Assembly: GCA_004431415.1 (NCBI GenBank) | Contig: QPMI01000527.1 | Location: forward strand, 1-64,000 | Length of the DNA: 64,000 nt | Direction of reading: 5' to 3' | DNA from: Cyanophora paradoxa CCMP329 | Taxonomy: Eukaryota > Plantae > Glaucophyta | In this document: positions 6 to 21,322 of the stretch, piece by piece | How positions within the stretch are numbered: position 1 is the stretch's first letter | Layout: the number at the start of each line of letters is the position of its first letter | The notes under the pieces: model-generated | Database searches by the model: none | The model's input: only the letters and a program-made list of their open reading frames with translations | What the model was told of the DNA's origin: nothing | Translations under genes and position numbers: made by a program

Positions 6-1429
6 ATGGCCAAGGACCCCAAGAAGCCGAAGAAGCCGAAGGCGGCCAAGCCCCAGCCCGCCAGCCCGCAGGCGCAGCGCCCGCGGCCCCGCCCCGCCGG
101 CCAGGCCACCGGCACGGGCTCGGGCACGGCCCCCGCCGCCGCGCCAGCTGCGCCATGGCATGCAGAAGGACGGCCAGCAGCTCACGCCCGAGCAGGTCAA
201 CGCCTTTCCTCGACAACTCGAAGACGGGCGGCATCGAGCGCATGGCCTGCCTGCCCGAGCTCAAGTGGTTCGACGTGAACACCGTCAAGTCCGACGCCAC
301 GTCGTCTGCGTCGCAAGCGGCGCACGGCAAGTCCTTCTTCCTCCGCGATCTCATGTTCAACCTCTCCGGCACCTTCCCGGGGGGTATCGTGATCAGCCAG
401 ACCGATCGCCTGAACGGCTACTGGAAGCAGTACATCCGCAGCGCTTCATCTGGCCCAAGTACAACCCGGGCGTGCTCTTCCATTTATTCAGGAGGCAGCA
501 GGCGATCATGCAGCACAACAAGTCCGAAGACGTGCTGCGGGAAAGGAGGATCCCGTCGACCCGCGATTTTTCGTGTTGCTCGACGACGTGATTTCCGACG
601 CTCGGCTGCGGTACGACGAGGCCCTCAACGAGCTCTTCGTGGCGGGCGCCACTACAAAATCATGACCCTTATCACGACGCAGTATGCCAAGGGCATCAAT
701 CCCGTCCTGCGCTCCAATACTGATCTGGCTGTCATTTTCAAGTGCTCGCAGGCGATGCAGCGCGAGGCCCCGCAAAGGAGTGGGGCGACATCATCTCCAG
801 CGCGCCTTCTACTACCTGCTCGATAAGTACACGCAGGATAACCACTGCCTTATCATCGATTCTTCCAACAACTCTACGAACCCTCTGGACGTTTGTACGT
901 CTACAAGGCCGAGGAGCCGCCCCCCTTCCGCATCGGATCCAAGGAGTACTGGGAGGGCGAAACCGTCAACGGAGAAAATCTCGTGGGTCCGGACGACGGC
1001 ACGGTGGACAAGACGCTCCTCGGCATGATAGATAATTTCAGGAAGCACCGCGGCCCGCCTGATTTTTCTGAGCTCGTGCGTAAGCAGTCGCCAGCGCCCA
1101 CACGCCTCCGTCTTCCGCGTCGAGTCCATCGCTTACGACTGCCTCCTGGAGCGAGCCTCGACCCCTCTCGCCCTTTAACGACGGCGAGGTCAGCAGCGCC
1201 CTGGAAGGATCTGCGACGCGCTGGAATTACTGGGAGCGCCTGACCGCGGAGCGCGGACGAGCCGCGGCCGAGTCGCTGGGCAGTGAGGACACCACTCGGA
1301 GGAGATGACAGACAAGAGGGAACAGGGTGATTACGTGCGCGACCCGGACGATTTTGCGACCTCGAATCGGGCTCGAGAGGAGGCAGAGAGACCGAGGACG
1401 AGGACTCCGACGCTAGGCGCGCCCCTTAA
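6..1429 (+). CDS. A32-like (FtsK/HerA family) virion DNA packaging ATPase, frameshifted; 3' end approximate
   Basis: Joined frames give a Walker A-like ..HGKSFFLRDLM, Walker B (F)VLLDDVISD, GRHYKI, ITTQYAKGINPVLRSNTD and LDKYTQDNHCLIID..YKAEEPPPFRIGSKEYW. These are typical of NCLDV/virophage/PLV A32 ATPases. Confidence 0.92.
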
Positions 1430-1451: not shown

Positions 1452-1772
1452 ATGTCAAAGTGCTCCTAGGCTCTCCAGGCTATCGTGCAGTACGCCCTCG
1501 CCTGGCATCCGCTCCTCATCGACGCCGCTTCTCTCGCACGAAGGCGAAAACAGGCGGCCACGCAGCCGAGCTCGCCGCGCAAGTCGCCGTCAACGGCCTC
1601 TCCTCGGCCTGCTCTCGAAATACGTGCTCACCCTCAAGTTCTTCGACGACGACCCCACCGGCGGAATATGTTCATCCTCGGATTCACACACGGGCAGACG
1701 AACATGCTAATCAAGGCTACCAGCGCCAGCTTCGAATCAAGCAGCGCTCGAGCGGAAGCCGCCGATCACTAA
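1452..1772 (+). CDS. Small viral hypothetical protein, frameshifted
   Basis: ATG at 1452 preceded by the shared upstream motif; coding-like fragments in alternating frames. Confidence 0.45.
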
Positions 1773-1779
1773 AGAGTAG

Positions 1780-2703
1780 CTAAAGAGTAGGAAAGAAATG
1801 CCAGTCGTTGTACTCGCAGATCCTGTTCCAAATCGAATCTAACTCCGAGAGTTTCTGCCTGCTCTTGAGCAAGGGGAAAAGGAGTGCTGGCAAATCCAGC
1901 AGCACGAAAATCTGCCTGAAAACGTAATTGTAGTTGAGCATGTTCTTCCTGCCCTCGACTTGAACATGCTGAAGGGGACCTCCACCAGGGCGAACATCTC
2001 CTGCACCCGGTCCATGTCCTCCGCGCTCATCGGAGGCGGCGCTCGCCCGTGATGCGCCACTTGATCTGCGCCCAGCGCTCGATGTACTTCTGCTGCTTCA
2101 GAGCCCGGAGAACTTGGCGGATATTGTCTTTGCTCCACTCCTTCCCGCCATCGCCTCGCAATAGCTGCCAGCACGTCCTCGGTACCGGAGAATCCTCCAG
2201 GCAGTGCTGCTTAAGTCGCTCGGAAACGTGGTACTTGCGCAGGTAGTTGCTGTGGAGCTCGCTGACAGCCAGGGTTGATGTCCGATAATAAAGATCCAGG
2301 ACCAGACGCAGCCTTGCAACCAGATCCCATCCAGGTGAACACCAACGAGGGCGGTAGAGCTGCAATTCCGCAGGGACAGCGGCTTCGCCTTGGGGCCTTG
2401 GTGCGGCGGTTGCGCTTGCGGGGCGCTCTCCGCCCCGAGGTAGGATTGGCGATGGCGGCGCGGCGGCGGGTACGGTGCCGGAGTGTCGAAGTCTGGGTCC
2501 CCTCGTCGTGAAGGATGGCGCGTAGCGCTGGATCTGCTCGAAGTTTCGGAGAGGAGATCGATTTCGTTAGAGTCTGCATTCCTGAGCCTCGTACTGCAGC
2601 TGAGCTATTCCCTGCAGAACCAACAGGTTGGCTCTCAGAGGAGAGTGGGTCCCACTTGCAAGTGAGGAAGCACTTGTTGCAGAAGCGTTGCTCAGGTGAT
2701 CAT
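1780..2703 (-). CDS. VLTF3: Viral late transcription factor 3 (poxvirus A2L-like), frameshifted; start uncertain
   Basis: Reconstructed NYLRKYHVSERLKQ..., MFALVEVPFSMFK..GRKNMLNYNYVFRQIFVLLDLP..FPLLKSRQKLSELDSIWNRICEYNDWHFFPTL-stop, matching the VLTF3 C-terminal signature. Cys-rich N-terminus. Confidence 0.9.
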
Positions 2704-2796
2704 GTGAGGCTCAGTGATGCTCAGTGAGTGCGGACGTACCCCGGGCCCCACGTGGAAGCTCACCCAGCCTCGGAAATTTTCTAGCCTTGGTCTGAC

Positions 2797-3583
2797 ATGC
2801 TCAACCTCATCGCGAGGCGTGGCAGCAAACAGGCAAGCCCGGCACCGAACCCTCACCTCCGCATGACGCCTCCGGCCGCTCCGGGTAGAGACGCACATCG
2901 TGTGGGCAACATCAACGACAAGGTGCTGGCGCCCGACAAGACGTGGTTCCAGAAGTGCTGGACGCGGCGCCCGTGAGGAAACTGAACGGGAGGATCGGCC
3001 GCAGCGCGAGTCGAATTTCATGATCACCATCCAGACCAACTACAAGCCGCGGAGCAGGGAGAGGCTCCAAGGTGCAGGACGCTTTCACAGGGGCTGGAGG
3101 CCCTCTTCTACGACGACAGGCAGCTGGCGCGGTGCATAAAGATGGGGGTGTACCCCGACAAGGCGAACCCCAAGGGCTTCGATTTCAAGTCCGACCAGTA
3201 CGACACGCACGTGGAGAAGGGCAACGCGAACATCGGCATCGAGTACGGGCGCGGTCGGGGCGGCTCCACGCGCACATCTGCTCACGCTGGTGCACTACTC
3301 GCGCGTGCAATTCGACGGCAAGAAGGCGTCGGATTTCCTCATCAAGTTCATGCAAACGGAGGGGCAGGCGGCCTGCCGAATTTCTACAAGGACGACTGGT
3401 TCGGGGAGGAGTACAGAAGACGGCGGTGCGGCCGATACGGAGAAAGACGCCCTCGCATGCAGTGGACGGGCAAGGAGACGGCTACAGGAAGCGAGAAACC
3501 GCCAGCAGATGCACGTAGACGTAAAATTGCTGCCGCAGAGCAACCTTAAGGATCTGCTGCAGCTGTACATTACGAAGACGTAG
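2797..3583 (+). CDS. HUH superfamily (Rep-like) endonuclease, copy 1, frameshifted
   Basis: Motif I SNFMITIQTN, motif II GIEYG..GRLHAHI, motif III LLQLYITKT (YxxK). Confidence 0.8.
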
Positions 3584-3637
3584 AGCCCTCGAGACGGCGC
3601 TGTAAAGCTCGTGTAAATTTTTTCTCGTGTCCAATAA

Positions 3638-4629
3638 ATGCCTCCGAAGCGCCGAGGCCGCAAGAAGAAGCCAGAGAGCTCGAGCGAGTCAGAGGAAGAG
3701 GAGCCCACGTCCCGTCCTCCGAGTCGGAGGAAGAAGAGGAGGAAGAGGAAGAGGAGCCGGAGCCTAAGCGAAGGGCAAGGGCAAGGGGAAGGGAAAGGAA
3801 AGGCAAAGGGAAACGCGCCCGATACCGGCGTGGACGAGCTCGAGACGCCCGTCGTTGAGATTCCGAAGCGATACGTGCTGGTCAGGCGAGGACGGCATAT
3901 TCCAGCAGCAGAAGAGCATATCCGATTACATCAAGCTCTCGGCCACCAAAGAAGTTCAGATGCTCCCATCGCTGCTCGATAAATCATACCACGAGCCCGC
4001 GACCCTCTGGAGCATCCACAGCGAAATCGAGTACGATAAACTCCCCGAGGAGCGACTGCGCGCCATACCGCGCACGTACCAGAGCGCGCAGAAATCGCCG
4101 CCAATCTGCTACCGCTGCCTTCGCCTCATGTACGAAGCCACGCCCGTGCCGAGCGCCAAGGGGCCAACACGCCAGAGAAAATCGCCGCGAGGGAGGCAGC
4201 GCAGGCGAGGAAGGATGCCGTGTACGAAGAGTACGTCGCGGTCATAGAGAAGGCAAACGCGTGGGCGGCCAAGCAAAACGGCAAGGGAAAGAAAAGGGCC
4301 AGGAGCCGTACCCCTCATCAAGGACAAGAAGCCGCGCAGGTGCCCACGGTGTCGCCCAGAAACTCGTGGCTCTGCCAGAAGTGCGTCACGCTGCTCGGCA
4401 ACAAGGCCTGCTCGTGATCTTGGCCTGCAGAGGCGAAAGAGGGGCGACACGGCCACCGTCTCCAAGCAGACGCGCGACCACATGGTCGAGAGCGTGCTCG
4501 CGGGCCGAAGCCAAGACACGAAAAAGGCAAAGGATACGGCCGCTGACTCGATCGTCCGTCATCGAGCCAACTCTGCGCAGTCGAAAATCAGAAAGGCGAA
4601 AATCGTGGCGCCGAGCATGGAAGATTTAA
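3638..4629 (+). CDS. Viral hypothetical protein with NLS-like basic/acidic N-terminus and CxxC pairs, frameshifted
   Basis: MPPKRRGRKKK, poly-E tract, CYRC and WLCQKC. Upstream motif present; stop overlaps the next start (TAATG at 4627-4631). Confidence 0.55.
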
Positions 4630-5637
4630 TGGCAACCTTCGCGACGCGCAAGAGGTAAAGCAGAACATAGAGAAGGCGAAAACGGACTGCAGGCGGCGCA
4701 GGCAAACGGCTGGAGGCGCTCGAGAAGGTGATCACGGAAATCAGCGAGACGGGCGGTCGTCTTCATCCTCAACAAAAAGAATCCCGACGGAAGCACGCGG
4801 TACGACATACGACAGGCGCGCCAGTCGCGCTACTGGGTGCTCTTCAACACCCACAAGCGCCTGGAGAGGCGCGAGAATTCGAGGCGGCGGCGCTGCGCGA
4901 CAGCCTCGCAGAGGTGCTCTCGGATGCAGAATTCTACAAGTTCATACGCTTCAATATGAAGGAAGAGAACGGCAAGTACAAGGACGACACGTACGCCAAC
5001 GCAATCATCGGAATTCGCGTGCAAGGGGCGTGGAGGTGGGGCCGACGGACGGCGCGCTGCACGCCACGTGCTGGTGACGATCGATCACATATCGAATTTG
5101 CAGGTGCTGTGGCGAATTACGACTGGGTGGTGCTGCTGAAGGAGAAGGAGCCGAGCACCACGACGGTGTACGAGCGGCTGCACCAAATTCTGTCCGCGAA
5201 ATTCACGGCGGCGGGGCAGCGCCTCGTAGACCAGAAGAGGCAGAGGCAGGGCCTCAACCGAGCATCGATACGATGGTGGAAATCGCAGAGCTCGAGCGCA
5301 TGCTGACGGAAGAGAAGATAGGCATGGGGAAAGATCCGCCCACCGTCCTTGCGTCGCTGATCCCAGAGGAAAATTACGCGAGCAAGCTGCAGGAGTACCT
5401 CTCAAAGACGCTGCCCGACAAGCAGAGGCGCGATTTACTGAAAGAGTGGTCGCACGCGCGAAACACGAACAACACCGACAACAACACGGACGGGTACCTC
5501 TTCACGATTTTCCAGGCGGACGCCGGCAGGCGGACGATCCCCGCTTCGCGCCGCAGGCCGCGGAAATCGGCGACCTGAGGGCCAGGGCCGAGGGCGCGGC
5601 AAAGGCAAGGGCGCGGAAGGGAAGGGGTAGCGGATAA
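4629..5637 (+). CDS. HUH endonuclease, copy 2 (paralog of 2797-3583), frameshifted
   Basis: SRYWVLFNTHK (motif I), VEVGPTDGALHA[H]VLVTIDH (restored by a 1-nt insertion) and KLQEYLSKT (YxxK), collinear with copy 1. Confidence 0.75.
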
Positions 5638-5658
5638 TAAATCTGACGGCCCGCGAAA

Positions 5659-5919
5659 ATGTTCCAGGGGGAATGCACCCACTCGGACATCATCACCGTC
5701 GTCTGCGGCGCGCTCTTCCTGTCTCGGAGCTGCTGGCGGCACGGAGCGCGTCGGCCCAACACAGTGCTGGGCGCCCTGAAGGCGGCGGCCCTTAGGTCGT
5801 CCGCCGCGGACAGCCCGAGCCCGAACCCCCACCGAGCAGCAGAGGCGCGAGAGCACGCAGAACATAGGCCGCACCACGTCGACATTCAGATGACGCAAAC
5901 CGGTACCGTTTTTTTCTAG
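5659..5919 (+). CDS. Small putative membrane protein
   Basis: ORF with hydrophobic segment IITVVCGALFL; upstream motif present. Confidence 0.4.
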   Translation: MFQGECTHSDIITVVCGALFLSRSCWRHGARRPNTVLGALKAAALRSSAADSPSPNPHRAAEAREHAEHRPHHVDIQMTQTGTVFF

Positions 5920-6504: not shown

Positions 6505-6951
6505 ATGTCCTGCGTCAACCTCTACGTCCAGTCGAACGGAGAGACGCAGGATTCCGAGGGCTTCTGGCGCCTCAGGCTGAACCAGATCCCCGCCGACATC
6601 GACACGCTGCAGATCAAGGCGTCTACCTGGAGCTGGACACGACCGCGATTCCGGACCCACCGCCGCGAAAACCGTCAACGTTCTGCTGATGGACGTGCCC
6701 GACTTGAACGTCACGACCATCTCGAACGTCAACACGTGCATCAACAAGGTCGTGATCCCGACGTGGGCCACGACGGCCTCGAGAACACCATCCTCTACTG
6801 GTTCGAGGTGCCCATGGCCGTGCGCCCGAACTACGTCGCGTACGACAAGTTCCAGGAGCTGCGCGTGCGCTTCACCGACATCACGGGCGCCACCAAGAAG
6901 AACAACGCCTTCATCGTCAAGAACTTCGGCCTCTGGGCCTTTGCGAAATAG
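6505..6951 (+). CDS. Beta-rich viral protein, possible single jelly-roll minor capsid/penton-like
   Basis: Alternating hydrophobic strands VNLYVQS, WRLRLN, TLQIK, VLLMDVPDL, KFQELRVRFTDITG. The fold is inference only. Confidence 0.4.
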   Translation: MSCVNLYVQSNGETQDSEGFWRLRLNQIPADIDTLQIKASTWSWTRPRFRTHRRENRQRSADGRARLERHDHLERQHVHQQGRDPDVGHDGLENTILYWFEVPMAVRPNYVAYDKFQELRVRFTDITGATKKNNAFIVKNFGLWAFAK

Positions 6952-12565: not shown

Positions 12566-13624
12566 ATGTCGGTCGCTGTCCCTCTATTTACCTATGCTGC
12601 CAGCGTGAATCACAAGGGCGATCACACGATTAAGGAGACCACCCTCGGAAACCAGGCCACCGAGGCCCCCTACAACGCCACGGCCGTCCCCTTTCCGAGG
12701 CCGACCTCGTCCGCGTCGGCGAGCTGCGCTGCGACAAGATGCGCACGCGGGAGGGCGGGTCGGCCGTGCCGGGGCGCGTGAGGACGCAGAGGCTCACCGT
12801 CACGAACGGGGCCTGGGACGGGAGCGGGTACACCACGAATCAGGTGACCTTTAATGGGACTGTGAACGGGGAGGGGAATGCGGCTCTGTATGTGCAAGGA
12901 GGCGGAGCAAACGTGGTGGGGGGCTTAGGGTGAGCGGGGCTTCAAACTTGGCGGGCATCGTTACATTGGACGATAAGCTGCAAATTACCGGAACGTCACC
13001 GTACATAAATGGCGGTGGTTCAGGCGTAGCTATAAAGTACAACGAAAACGATAGACTCCTCTGTGGGACTCTTGGCGTTGGTGTTACAGGTACTCTATTT
13101 ACCTCGGCAATCGAAGGCCCTACTAATGGCCTAAGCATAGCAAACACTTCAATCGTTGATAGCGGAAGCGTCAGCTCTGGTCTATCCTTGAGAAACAACG
13201 GCACCGAACGACTGCTGTGCGGAACCGTCGGCGTTGGCATCACGGGTCGGCTCATCGTCTCGACGCTCACGGGCGATGGAAACCGAGCCGTTTATTCGGA
13301 TGCTCAAGGATACCTGACAAACTCGTCGAGCGATAGCCGCCTGAAAGAAAATGTCGCGAGCATGTCGGGCATTCTCCCTCTTCTGCTGCAGCTGAATCCC
13401 GTGTCGTTCACCTGGAAGAACACATCCTCGGGGGTTCGAAAACGGATTACGGTCTCATCGCACAGGAAGTCCAAGGCGTCTTCCCGAGTCTCGTTTTCGA
13501 GAACGCGGATGGATTTCTCGGGGTAAACTACGACAGGCTCATTTCCCTGTCGTTGAAGGCAATTCAGGAACTTTCACAAGAAGTTCAAACTCTCAAAGAC
13601 CAGGTAGCGGCACTGGCGAGCTGA
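12566..13624 (+). CDS. Fibre/spike protein with C-terminal intramolecular chaperone (Peptidase S74), frameshifted
   Basis: SSDSRLKENV..LLQLNPVSFTWK..DYGLIAQEVQGVFPSLV..GVNYDRLISLSLKAIQEL followed by a coiled coil. Internal repeats DRLLCGTLGVGVTG and ERLLCGTVGVGITG. Confidence 0.85.
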
Positions 13625-15816: not shown

Positions 15817-16497
15817 ATGACTTCCAACTGGTACCAGACCCTCAGCGGCTCACTTGACGTTGGCAACAACACCAAGGATTTCGCACGCATACCCTCCGGC
15901 AGTTACGTCGACGTCTTTCTGCAGAATCCCGTCGTGATTCAGGTCGTTCAGAACGCCTACGCCACGCCCAAGATTTATTCCTACCAGCTCTTCTTCGACC
16001 CTCTGAGCCTCAGCGCAGAGGTTATCGAGCTGCTGCACGAATCAGGACTCGTGAAAAAGGTGGCACCTGCCACGGCCACTGCCAACGTCTTGCGCTGTCT
16101 CGAGGTCAAGTTCAGGGAGACGGGGTACGGCCCCACCGTGAACCGGTACCCCAGTTCTTCGAATCTTCCGGGTACGGGAACTTACCAGATGAGGGGTACG
16201 CTCAAGGGCGACGTGCTCTTCACGAAATTCAATCCAAGTCCCGCGACCCTGGGGCCCTCTACACGGGCGGCAACCCACGCGGCTCGACTCTACCCCGCTT
16301 CCCCTTCACCTTTTTCAGGTTCCAGGTCTTCCCCCTCTCCTACGCCGCCGACCAGCCCCACTTCAGCACGGGCGCCAGCCTCTGCGCGGAGCTGCGTGAG
16401 TGCTCGATTTCCTACGCGTACGGCACCGACGCTGACTCTGTGCCTGGGGCCCGCGTCATGAACATCGGTGGCGACATCACCCTCTTTCACGGATAAT
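15817..16497 (+). CDS. Viral beta-rich protein, paralog A of a tandem pair; 3' end approximate
   Basis: Shares QNPV..V..N....P...S...FD, SGL.KK..P, R.LE.KF and LFTKF with the next gene. Confidence 0.6.
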
Positions 16498-16519: not shown

Positions 16520-17331
16520 ATGCCGACCACCTCGGCCACCATCGTGAAGACCGTGTCTGCCGGCTCGATCGTCCCCGATTTCTACGGCAACGCTGGAACG
16601 TGGCCAACGCAGGGACGGACAAGGTGGAGTGGGACGGAAACTACGCCACCCCGCTCACCGTGAGGGTCCAGAATCCCGTCATGTTGCGCGTCACCTCCAA
16701 CGATTTCGAGAATCCCGCCTCCTGCTCCGTGTACGTGTACTTTGACATCGACTCGGGCGTGAGCGCGGATGAGGCGGAGGCGCTCTGGCTCTCGGGCCTC
16801 CTGAAAAAGATAGAGCCCTCTGTGCCTGATCGGCCCGCCATTCGCGTGCTCGAACTCAAGTTCACCGCTAACACCGCCCTCACTCGCAAATTCGGGAATG
16901 GTGCGAATCCGAACATCAAAACGCATTTAGATGGCGCCCTCATCGATGCCACACACAAGACCACGCAGGCCGTTCCCTTTGAGATGTACAACCTCTGGAA
17001 GATGACCGCAAAGGAGATGATGACGAATGCCACCACGGGCGGCGCCTCGGGTACCGATTATTCATACGGCGCCTCGAATCCCCGTACCCAGGTCTGGCCC
17101 CGGCTCCTCTTCACGAAATTCACTTTCAAATTGTACAACAACATCGCCGGAATGCCTACCTCTGGAATGGTCGTGGGCTCTACCCTCATGGCCGAACTAA
17201 TTGAGGCAGAGGCGGACTACACGACTGCGACTACCAACTCGACAGCGCCAGGCGCCGGAGCCGAAGTTTACGTGGCCTGGGAAACGGTCGGTCGCGAGTA
17301 CGACACCAAGATTCACACCACTAGCGTCTAG
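16520..17331 (+). CDS. Viral beta-rich protein, paralog B of a tandem pair
   Basis: VQNPVMLRVTSND..FD..SGLLKKIEP..RVLELKF..LLFTKF. ATG at 16520 preceded by the shared motif, with one early frameshift. Confidence 0.6.
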
Positions 17332-17685
17332 ACTGGCTAAGCTGCATTAGCACCTGTGTCGCCTCCATCATCTCCCGAATCTCCTCGCTCTTCTCCTGTA
17401 AATTGGCGTACCCCCTCCTCTTCTTGCGAATCTCCGACATTGATGCCCAGCGCAGGTTCTCCCTCCTGTAGTCCAGCGGGTTGCCGTTGATGTGTTCCAC
17501 GTAGCGTCCACGTGGCGACTTCCCGAGGATCAGCTGGGAGAGGTAGTGCTTGCGCCCTCCAAACGTCTTGCTCACCCTGTCCCTGTCCACTCTCCAGGGA
17601 AACTCCAAGGCACTCGGGGTACGTCCGAGTTGACCAGGACGTTGTAGGCGACGTCTTGCGAGTCGGTGCACCGGAGCAGGGCCAT
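17321..17685 (-). CDS. HNH endonuclease-like protein (HNH_3 type), possibly degenerate
   Basis: YLSQLILG...VEHINGNPLDYRRENLRW resembles the DHINGN.LDNRRENLR motif. Start ATG at 17685 with upstream TTTTTCTG-N-AAAATG. Confidence 0.75.
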
Positions 17686-17709
17686 TTTGCCCTAGGTTCA
17701 GAAAAACCT

Positions 17710-20342: not shown

Positions 20343-21093
20343 AGGTCACATTTTTCTCCCATTTTGACTCGAGATTCTGACCAAGTCCAAATCCGGGCCC
20401 GGGATTCGAACCCTCGTTTTCGATCGATTTCACGCGTGAAAACGGCACTTTTCGGCCTTTTCCGATTTTTCCTTTCTCGCGATCGCATTAATGTCCCCGA
20501 TCTCGAAATCGCGATCGAAAAGGGTCGCGATCGGGAGAAAATCGCGATCGCCAGGGTCGTGATCGCCGCGATCGCCAGCCTCGGAGGGGGTACCCCCACA
20601 GCTGTTGCGGCGGTTATAAGAACCTCCGCAATCCAAGCGTCACTTCCGAGTCTCGAGCTCTCGGAGTTGCCTTTTCGCGTTTGGCCCATTGATGGCCCAT
20701 TTATATATATAACGGGCGGGCGGCCGCGTCCGAATCGGTCCGATGGTCCAGGCCTACCGGACCAGTAGTACCGGTAGCCTGCGGTAGGCTGCGTCCTGGC
20801 GCGCGGCGCCGGCGTCCCGGGTCCAGGCGGTTTGAAATACTTAGCCGTCAATTGCCAAGAGGTCGAATTCACCAAAAAACAAAAAAGAGGTCGAATTCGG
20901 AAATCATTGAATTTTAAACGACGGCAATGTTGCTGGGGGTAGGGATTTGCTAAGGCGCCATAGAGGCTGATGATAGAGCTAGCGCTAACGTCTCAGTTAC
21001 GTGAACTTACGTCTGGCAATTTATCGCCACGGCAATTCCGGTTTTGGGCGAATTCGGCAAATTTACTCCACGGCAATTTAACTTCGCCTACAG

Positions 21094-21322
21094 TACTGTA
21101 GGATGGCTTAAATTGCCGTGTAGTTAAATTGCCGAATTCGGCCAAAACCGGAATTGCCGTGGCGATAAATTGCCGAAATTCTGGATTTCTTCTATGGCGC
21201 CATACAAAAGCGGCCGTTTAGCCCTACCCCCTGAGAATTGCCGCGGCTCTAAATTGCCGAATTTGGCGTCTCGGCAATATACGGCAATTTAAAAGTACGG
21301 CTAAAAAAGCCATCCTACAGTA
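21094..21322. mobile_element. TA-flanked MITE (Tc1/mariner-pogo-like termini)
   Basis: TA-CTGTAGGATGGCTT ... AAGCCATCCTACAG-TA terminal inverted repeats. Confidence 0.7.

Follow-up and report, generated by a model that had tools for sequence, protein, structure and literature searches.

Genes and features of the virus-like region

The window, by which we mean the whole 64,000-nucleotide stretch of Cyanophora paradoxa CCMP329 DNA analyzed here, is virus-like and dense in genes over its first 20 kb. It begins at an ATPase gene and does not reach into the left part of the element. The following features were assigned:

6..1062, plus strand: A32-like DNA packaging ATPase; intact model P0204, 356 aa
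1453..1780, plus strand: small ORF; possible, weakly argued counterpart of a 113-120 aa gene that lies between ATPase and VLTF3 in relatives
1780..2703, minus strand: VLTF3; Pfam Pox_VLTF3 on 1783-2097 (E 1.7e-9, 38 bits, cut-off 25)
2774..2784, plus strand: A/T-run motif about 20 bases 5' of the start codon, presumably promoter-like
2797..3616, plus strand: short HUH endonuclease of about 280 aa; E158, H167, H169, H176, Y269 and K272 (numbering of model P0005)
3638..5637, plus strand: long HUH protein of 676 aa with an acidic/basic N-terminal part, CxxC motifs at 159 and 249, a coiled coil predicted for 333-378 and the HUH domain at about 400-600
12566..13624, plus strand: tail-fibre-like gene with a Peptidase_S74 chaperone domain, in the same element as the HUH pair
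17324..17690, minus strand: HNH endonuclease of the same element (Pfam HNH_3, E 2.7e-7), adjoining a repeat region
20350..20700: approximate right boundary of the element as judged from composition, with intron-rich host DNA beyond

VLTF2/3 is taken as diagnostic of an affinity to the Nucleocytoviricota (PMC11253617), and the VLTF3 gene of the window reached 142.9 bits with a profile built from three relatives, compared with at most 25.2 bits for controls. A relative of the ATPase, P0207, matched Pox_A32 with an E value of 7e-4, which is below the cut-off. For the small ORF at 1453..1780 the best match of a three-sequence profile ends at 1706 and scored 22.4 bits versus a control maximum of 22.3, and position is the sole argument for the weak identification with the gene of the relatives. 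The A/T-run motif recurs before the long HUH gene (3615) and before at least four other genes.

Further reading frames are found between the long HUH gene and the right boundary. A 149-aa ORF on the plus strand (6505-6951) looks rich in beta strands, is without a family match and may resemble a minor capsid protein. It is followed on the same strand by one or more long, broken genes (7.5-12.5 kb) with coiled-coil and hydrophobic stretches and a weak tape-measure match (E 1e-5), while a broken gene on the minus strand (13.65-15.8 kb) has repeats that look fibronectin-like by eye, and it matches an ALK/LTK glycine-rich domain (E 6e-6). Two consecutive plus-strand ORFs, 15817-16496 and 16520-17331, look like paralogues by eye and gave no Pfam or PHROG match. 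The HNH_3 domain, detected here in the gene at 17324..17690, occurs in 40 of 156 glaucophyte elements according to the columns of Table S6 in PMC12220804.

At 17.7-18.3 kb, two arrays of a 7-base tandem unit are oriented toward each other with about 400 bases of gene-free DNA between them, and a third array at 20.26-20.35 kb, near the end of the element, repeats the second one as an 85-base direct repeat with 94% identity; these arrays are candidates for an origin or iteron region. When folded, the DNA of the right end formed several hairpins, none of which stands out, and an 80-base inverted repeat with perfectly abutting arms (89% complementary) is situated at 21015-21174, just outside the right boundary. 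The frequency of 6-mer palindromes is 8-22 per kb within 15.0-20.5 kb and 64, 52, 32 and 60 per kb in the four bins of 500 bases that follow, and beyond about 20.4-20.7 kb an intron-rich gene and retroelement domains follow. The plus strand at 29.8-40.6 kb carries an intron-rich host gene whose product looks, by eye, like a membrane protein containing PAS and nucleotide-cyclase regions, and the minus strand at 48.8-59.6 kb a LINE-like retroelement with endonuclease, reverse transcriptase and RNase H domains.

For comparison with the Mriyaviricetes we used the traits HUH, A32 ATPase, VLTF3, MCP, helicase, RuvC, PDDEXK, a size of 35-45 kb and the absence of a DNA polymerase. An MCP of the mriyavirus clade, a helicase, RuvC and PDDEXK were not seen in the visible 20 kb, which do not include the left part of the element. 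Integrase-bearing Polinton-like viruses have a tyrosine recombinase or retroviral integrase, terminal repeats and target-site duplications. No tyrosine recombinase or retroviral integrase family was found among the scanned frame pieces of 1-20.8 kb, in a scan of 107 proteins, 101 of them window pieces, plus further pieces, that was confined to pieces of at least 75 aa and made less sensitive by broken frames.

Integrity of the reading frames

Both HUH genes are interrupted by frame breaks in the window. Natural gene models match them in colinear pieces, mostly with 75-100% identity: the intact model P0028 (280 aa) covers 2810-3580 and the intact model P0017 (676 aa) covers 3638-5616. The short gene spans 820 bases, 23 fewer than the coding length of P0028, and the long gene, which begins 21 bases after the short one, spans 2,000 bases, 31 fewer than that of P0017.

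The earlier note had proposed correcting the frames with short reads. In a comparison with short-read contigs of which 12 of 74 gap rows are listed, one DNA contig differed from the window over 3817-5607 by 0 substitutions and 26 gaps (net +26), a second one over 3817-5688 by 0 substitutions and 29 gaps (net +29), and a contig possibly derived from RNA over 2822-3580 by 1 substitution and 18 gaps (net +18). The frame breaks are therefore most likely assembly or long-read errors, since the short-read contigs supply the missing single bases. Bases that are only added, with near-zero substitutions, are the typical error pattern of long reads. That the breaks are genuine and the window copy is a dead relic is conceivable insofar as the family has many copies and the short-read contigs may stem from other members of it; moreover, among the contig pieces listed none spans the entire stretch. 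We nevertheless regard this as very improbable, as every gap adds bases and substitutions number 0-1 across 0.7-1.9 kb, and as many contigs carry full-length models. Two contigs possibly derived from RNA, from two studies, extend over most of the short gene, one from 2819 and one from 2822 onward; their status as RNA is a guess, with none of the listed runs recorded as RNA, and they provide a weak hint that the short gene is transcribed.

Catalytic motifs and domain structure of the two HUH proteins

In a frameshift-tolerant scan of all 64 kb, a profile made from eight short HUH proteins from IMG/VR, none of them from Cyanophora, gave 80.4 and 57.7 bits for the two HUH genes, with 22.3 bits at the next-best place and no more than 28.3 bits in 50 shuffles. 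A putative third HUH domain at 4184, which reached 48.8 bits with a broader HUH profile, was discarded: its peak disappeared with profiles made from IMG/VR proteins only, and the broad profile includes one chimeric Cyanophora gene model.

The earlier note had described two homologous HUH-Y1 domains at this place in an endogenous virus, and this was borne out: the glutamate, the HUH motif and the YxxK motif are kept in both copies, albeit spread over shifting frames. In the short gene, FMITIQTN is located at 3017-3040, EYG at 3241, HAH at 3267-3275, LLTLVHYS from 3278 and YITK at 3566-3577. The corresponding motifs of the long gene are YWVLFNTH (4831-4854), EVGPTDGALHA (5033-5065), HVLVTIDHIS (from 5065) and EYLSK (5393-5407), with E474, H483, H485, H492, Y596 and K599 as the conserved residues of the protein. 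HAH (motif II) occurs in 21 of 25 models of the short gene and in 21 of 27 of the long gene, and motifs II and III are found together in 19 of 25 and 15 of 27, respectively. The six remaining long models are without the entire motif II stretch, and none has this stretch while missing the second histidine, the residue of the long copy that had been in doubt. E158, H167, H169, H176 and Y269 are invariant in all 99 proteins of the short-protein alignment, with K272 conserved in at least 90%; in the long-protein alignment the glutamate, both histidines, the further histidine and the tyrosine are invariant in 102 of 102 proteins, again with at least 90% conservation of the lysine. In the columns of Y269/K272 and Y596/K599 the tyrosine is present in 141 and the lysine in 139 of 148 domains.

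The two proteins share 27% identity across 107 residues. A Walker A motif is absent from both, in agreement with the earlier statement that neither carries a fused helicase. One correction concerns the long copy, which is not a second small Rep: its motifs belong to the C-terminal domain, at about residues 400-600, of a protein of 676 aa whose start is at 3638.

Pfam and PHROG contain no family that matches the intact short or long protein, and Pfam was also blank on the broken frame pieces. Rep-family matches were obtained for just 7 of 99 relatives and were all weak. A sequence search against solved structures gave nothing significant, and the ESM Atlas no usable match with the short protein as query.

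Predicted structures

The AlphaFold model of the short protein (mean pLDDT 78.4, pTM 0.71) has a ferredoxin/RRM-like core, and in that of the long protein (overall pLDDT 65.2) the HUH part shows the strand-helix order of the short model. Among 48,161 chains, TnpA of ISHp608 ranked second for the short model (Z 6.5, rmsd 4.5, 114 aligned residues), over residues 75-273 and including the tyrosine helix, and SIRV1 ORF119 gave a Z score of 5.0. Residues 401-600 of the long model aligned with the same TnpA at Z 6.0 and rmsd 4.0, also with 114 residues. These scores are middling, with no chain at Z 8 and an unrelated adenovirus protein tied for first place, and Foldseek returned no match in the PDB at E <= 0.001. 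With regard to the HUH fold proposed for both copies, the fold class thus fits and TnpA ranks second, while scores of 6.5 and 6.0 are tied with those of unrelated folds; taken alone, the alignments with TnpA would speak for a common fold only. Among viral structures, both models matched A0A2H4YB87_2 best (E 2.7e-11 and 1.7e-9). This is the second part of a split entry and has 793 residues, which would agree with a protein as large as HUH_long.

Occurrence in Cyanophora paradoxa

EukProt models with Cyanophora paradoxa accessions are 85-100% identical to the frames of the window. HUH gene models are present on at least 37 Cyanophora contigs, some of which may be redundant, the short gene on 26 and the long gene on 26 of them; on all 15 contigs where both are named the two are consecutive. 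A second subfamily (P0020, 67% identical) was seen in reads too, at lower depth. Between the two subfamilies, identity amounts to 91% over residues 399-500, the region of motifs I to II, compared with 56-73% elsewhere.

A literature search revealed no publication on a mriyavirus of Cyanophora or on the HUH pair of such a virus, though supplementary tables may list one. A catalogue of 156 glaucophyte elements assigns them to the PLV type and, in its main text, never uses the term HUH (PMC12220804); the Cyanophora family may be among these elements. The main text of PMC10120064 mentions neither Cyanophora nor glaucophytes nor VLTF3.

Related viruses

A search with P0005 retrieved 153 representatives at E <= 0.001, 150 of which are listed, that comprise short forms as well as forms of up to 1,934 aa; in the long representatives the match sits at the C-terminus. 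With 13 aligned long-type domains as the query, eight IMG/VR loci (L001-L008) were retrieved, in all of which an HUH protein of 240-288 aa directly precedes one of 1,591-1,888 aa on one strand, i.e., in the order found in the window. The ATPases of all three IMG/VR two-HUH viruses tested are 43-49% identical to P0204, as opposed to 28% for the ATPase of a further locus, L009, in a comparison of identities only. In all three related records searched as a whole, a VLTF3 gene lies beside the ATPase gene on the opposite strand, and that of the window has the same relative position. Judged by their gene architecture, L001-L008 may be regarded as gamadviruses, and the same reasoning from architecture would place the Cyanophora HUH proteins in the mriyavirus family.

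Neither window pieces nor P0005 nor the ATPase alignment detected close relatives in IMG/VR. A metagenome scan with the short HUH protein gave no match and one with the ATPase the single distant locus L009, which is yaravirus-like: a single 191-aa HUH protein is encoded directly before the A32 ATPase (L009:9240-10948), and a RuvC-like ORF was seen by eye farther along. The phage collection contributed one Mollivirus ATPase with 23.5% identity and no HUH protein. For another distant relative, ATPase, short HUH and long HUH each gave a longest contig of 8,181 bases, and the three genes probably reside on one contig. In addition, P0080 (1,155 aa), P0123 (1,048 aa) and P0193 (613 aa) are long HUH proteins of intermediate length with CxxC motifs closer together, possibly representing steps between the compact and the long type, or fragments.

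Origin of the gene pair

A pair of adjacent genes for HUH and HUH_long is conserved in gamadviruses, and both proteins are predicted to be active (PMC11253617). The duplication as such is therefore already known, the Cyanophora genes showing the arrangement of this published pair, and the pair is not a local invention of the Cyanophora element, since it has been published for gamadviruses and is present also in free metagenomic virus contigs. As far as can be deduced from sequence, the long gene and gamadvirus HUH_long likely descend from one old duplication, the Cyanophora protein having about 1,000 residues fewer.

In 30 of 30 long relatives the HUH domain is preceded by two CxxC motifs, and this also holds for P0017, P0020 and P0193. 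Among 300 shuffles that preserve CxxC, 1, 1 and 3 were as high as the first motif of the latter three, and 7, 31 and 1 as high as the second, which is thus the weaker one. A second control used 422 CxxC sites, up to three of which are the true motifs in a shifted register; here, 3, 3 and 7 sites were as high as the first motif and 10, 10 and 3 as high as the second. When an N-terminal profile of the long relatives was compared with the Cyanophora type, only the region of the first CxxC aligned (hhalign probability 40%, E 3e-4). In trees of 44 and 39 chosen domains, the second of which omits five long-branched or odd rows, the long form of Cyanophora joins the long relatives with support of 97/86 and 93/83, and its short form stands apart from the short forms of the relatives. 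An AU test with the short forms constrained together gave p 0.037 under LG+G4 (rejected) and p 0.088 under a mixture model (not rejected), with P0056 placed in the short group in the mixture-model test only.

These data bear on an independent duplication in the Cyanophora lineage that would have converged with the gamadvirus pair. The mixture model does not reject a local duplication (p 0.081), and motif II reads LHAH in both copies versus HPHFH in most long relatives; on the other hand, a local duplication is rejected under LG+G4 (p 0.013), the gene order is identical, the CxxC pair is common to both sides, and ATPase and VLTF3 are closely related. We attribute a small chance to such a convergence. 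The common CxxC pair provides an initial point of access to the N-terminal region of HUH_long, which has been termed "uncharacterized".

Proposed function

Y1 HUH enzymes use one tyrosine to nick DNA and to hold its 5' end, and finishing a round of replication needs a second active site, usually that of a dimer partner. We consider it reasonably probable that the pair represents the short and long HUH-Y1 enzymes of an endogenous, gamadvirus-related virus of the Mriyaviricetes, acting jointly in rolling-circle replication. The short protein would nick the origin and remain attached through its tyrosine, and strand extension and displacement would be left to a host polymerase together with a separately encoded helicase (none was seen in the window). 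Cutting and resealing at the end of the round would require a second active site, since each protein has a single catalytic tyrosine; the long protein, with its predicted zinc site and coiled coil, would most likely provide this site or resolve concatemers into unit genomes. Integration would then be a side effect, caused by stray strand transfer or host repair, or would be carried out by a gene of the element's left part. Rolling-circle replication of mriyaviruses and the role of the second HUH protein of gamadviruses have themselves been predicted from sequence alone (PMC11253617).

A different division of labor, with the short protein in replication and the long one as a dedicated enzyme for integration and excision in the manner of IS200/IS608 TnpA or Helitron Rep, appears possible, yet unlikely. 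It would account for dozens of chromosomal copies without an integrase, given that one or the other gene is present on at least 37 host contigs and that the scanned pieces of 1-20.8 kb yielded neither of the two recombinase families. Furthermore, PF00589 was not found in three of three related virus records (fragments), TnpA is the best HUH fold match, and mriyaviruses, which include endogenous viruses in chlorophytes, are reported to be without integration genes, these being "notably absent" in the words of 10.64898/2026.06.19.733378. Against this stands that free metagenomic viruses have the same pair, which is thus not peculiar to integrated forms, that the window does not extend to the left part of the element and broken frames weaken the family scans, and that a retroviral integrase is listed for 85 of the 156 glaucophyte elements in the columns of Table S6 of PMC12220804, although these may be other families. 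In its full form, to which we likewise assign a low probability, this proposal would hold that a sister lineage of the gamadviruses persists as dozens of integrase-less copies in Cyanophora, its long zinc-site HUH protein inserting and excising a genome of tens of kb and its short HUH protein starting replication. If true, this would be a eukaryotic dsDNA virus with HUH-based lysogeny. Many near-intact copies in two subfamilies of a cultured alga afford many independent junctions, and the proteins (280 and 676 aa) are small enough to be assayed; both would make the purpose of the second HUH gene and the endogenization of integrase-less mriyaviruses testable.

Still less probable is an action of the long protein outside of replication, e.g., in binding or processing the genome during packaging, with its nuclease site serving that process only. 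Its 400 N-terminal residues are charged, largely of low confidence in the model and partly coiled coil, and the gene for the packaging ATPase is near the pair, but there is no direct sign of a virion function, and yaravirus-like relatives have one HUH protein only (L009; PMC11253617).

Comparison with known systems

Helitron RepHel and AAV Rep are HUH nucleases that can insert DNA into a host, and they share with the Cyanophora pair the nuclease chemistry predicted for the latter. They differ by a fused helicase, whereas the Cyanophora proteins are without a Walker A motif. TnpA of IS200/IS608 and SIRV1 ORF119 resemble the pair, as far as the predicted structures go, in a ferredoxin-like core with HUH and one tyrosine helix (Z 6.5 and 5.0). 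These, however, are single genes for proteins of about 120-140 aa with 11-22% identity in the structural overlap, and, unlike for IS200/IS608, there is no sign of an insertion sequence at the Cyanophora locus.

Yaraviridae and the groups "Zoravirus" (VC102) and VC218 possess the same HUH family, as exemplified by the 191-aa protein of L009 encoded beside its ATPase. In contrast to Cyanophora they have one HUH gene, and the ATPase of L009 is only 28% identical. Members of Zora and VC218 often bear a retroviral integrase, as stated in 10.64898/2026.06.19.733378.

The closest correspondence is that with "Gamadviridae", e.g., genes 11 and 10 of Pleurochrysis endemic virus 2 (PEV2; PMC11253617), in the adjacent genes for a short HUH protein and a protein with C-terminal HUH domain, in motifs II and III in both HUH proteins, in the absence of a fused helicase and in an A32 ATPase beside VLTF3. 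In contrast, the long protein of Cyanophora has 613-676 aa, as compared to an HUH domain that extends to residue 1574 in PEV2 and to 1,591-1,888 aa in L001-L008, the ATPase-VLTF3 block lies directly upstream of the pair, and many copies are integrated in a glaucophyte. Gamadviruses are also characterized by VLTF2 and by PEV genes specific to the family. A further difference concerns 15 other gene families that flank the HUH pair in L001-L008, none of which was detected in 21 kb of the window; they may be located in the left part of the element or have diverged. What is new is that the long protein is much shorter, that a predicted zinc site is shared and that a glaucophyte harbors a large endogenous family; this compact integrated version likely constitutes a new branch in a culturable host.
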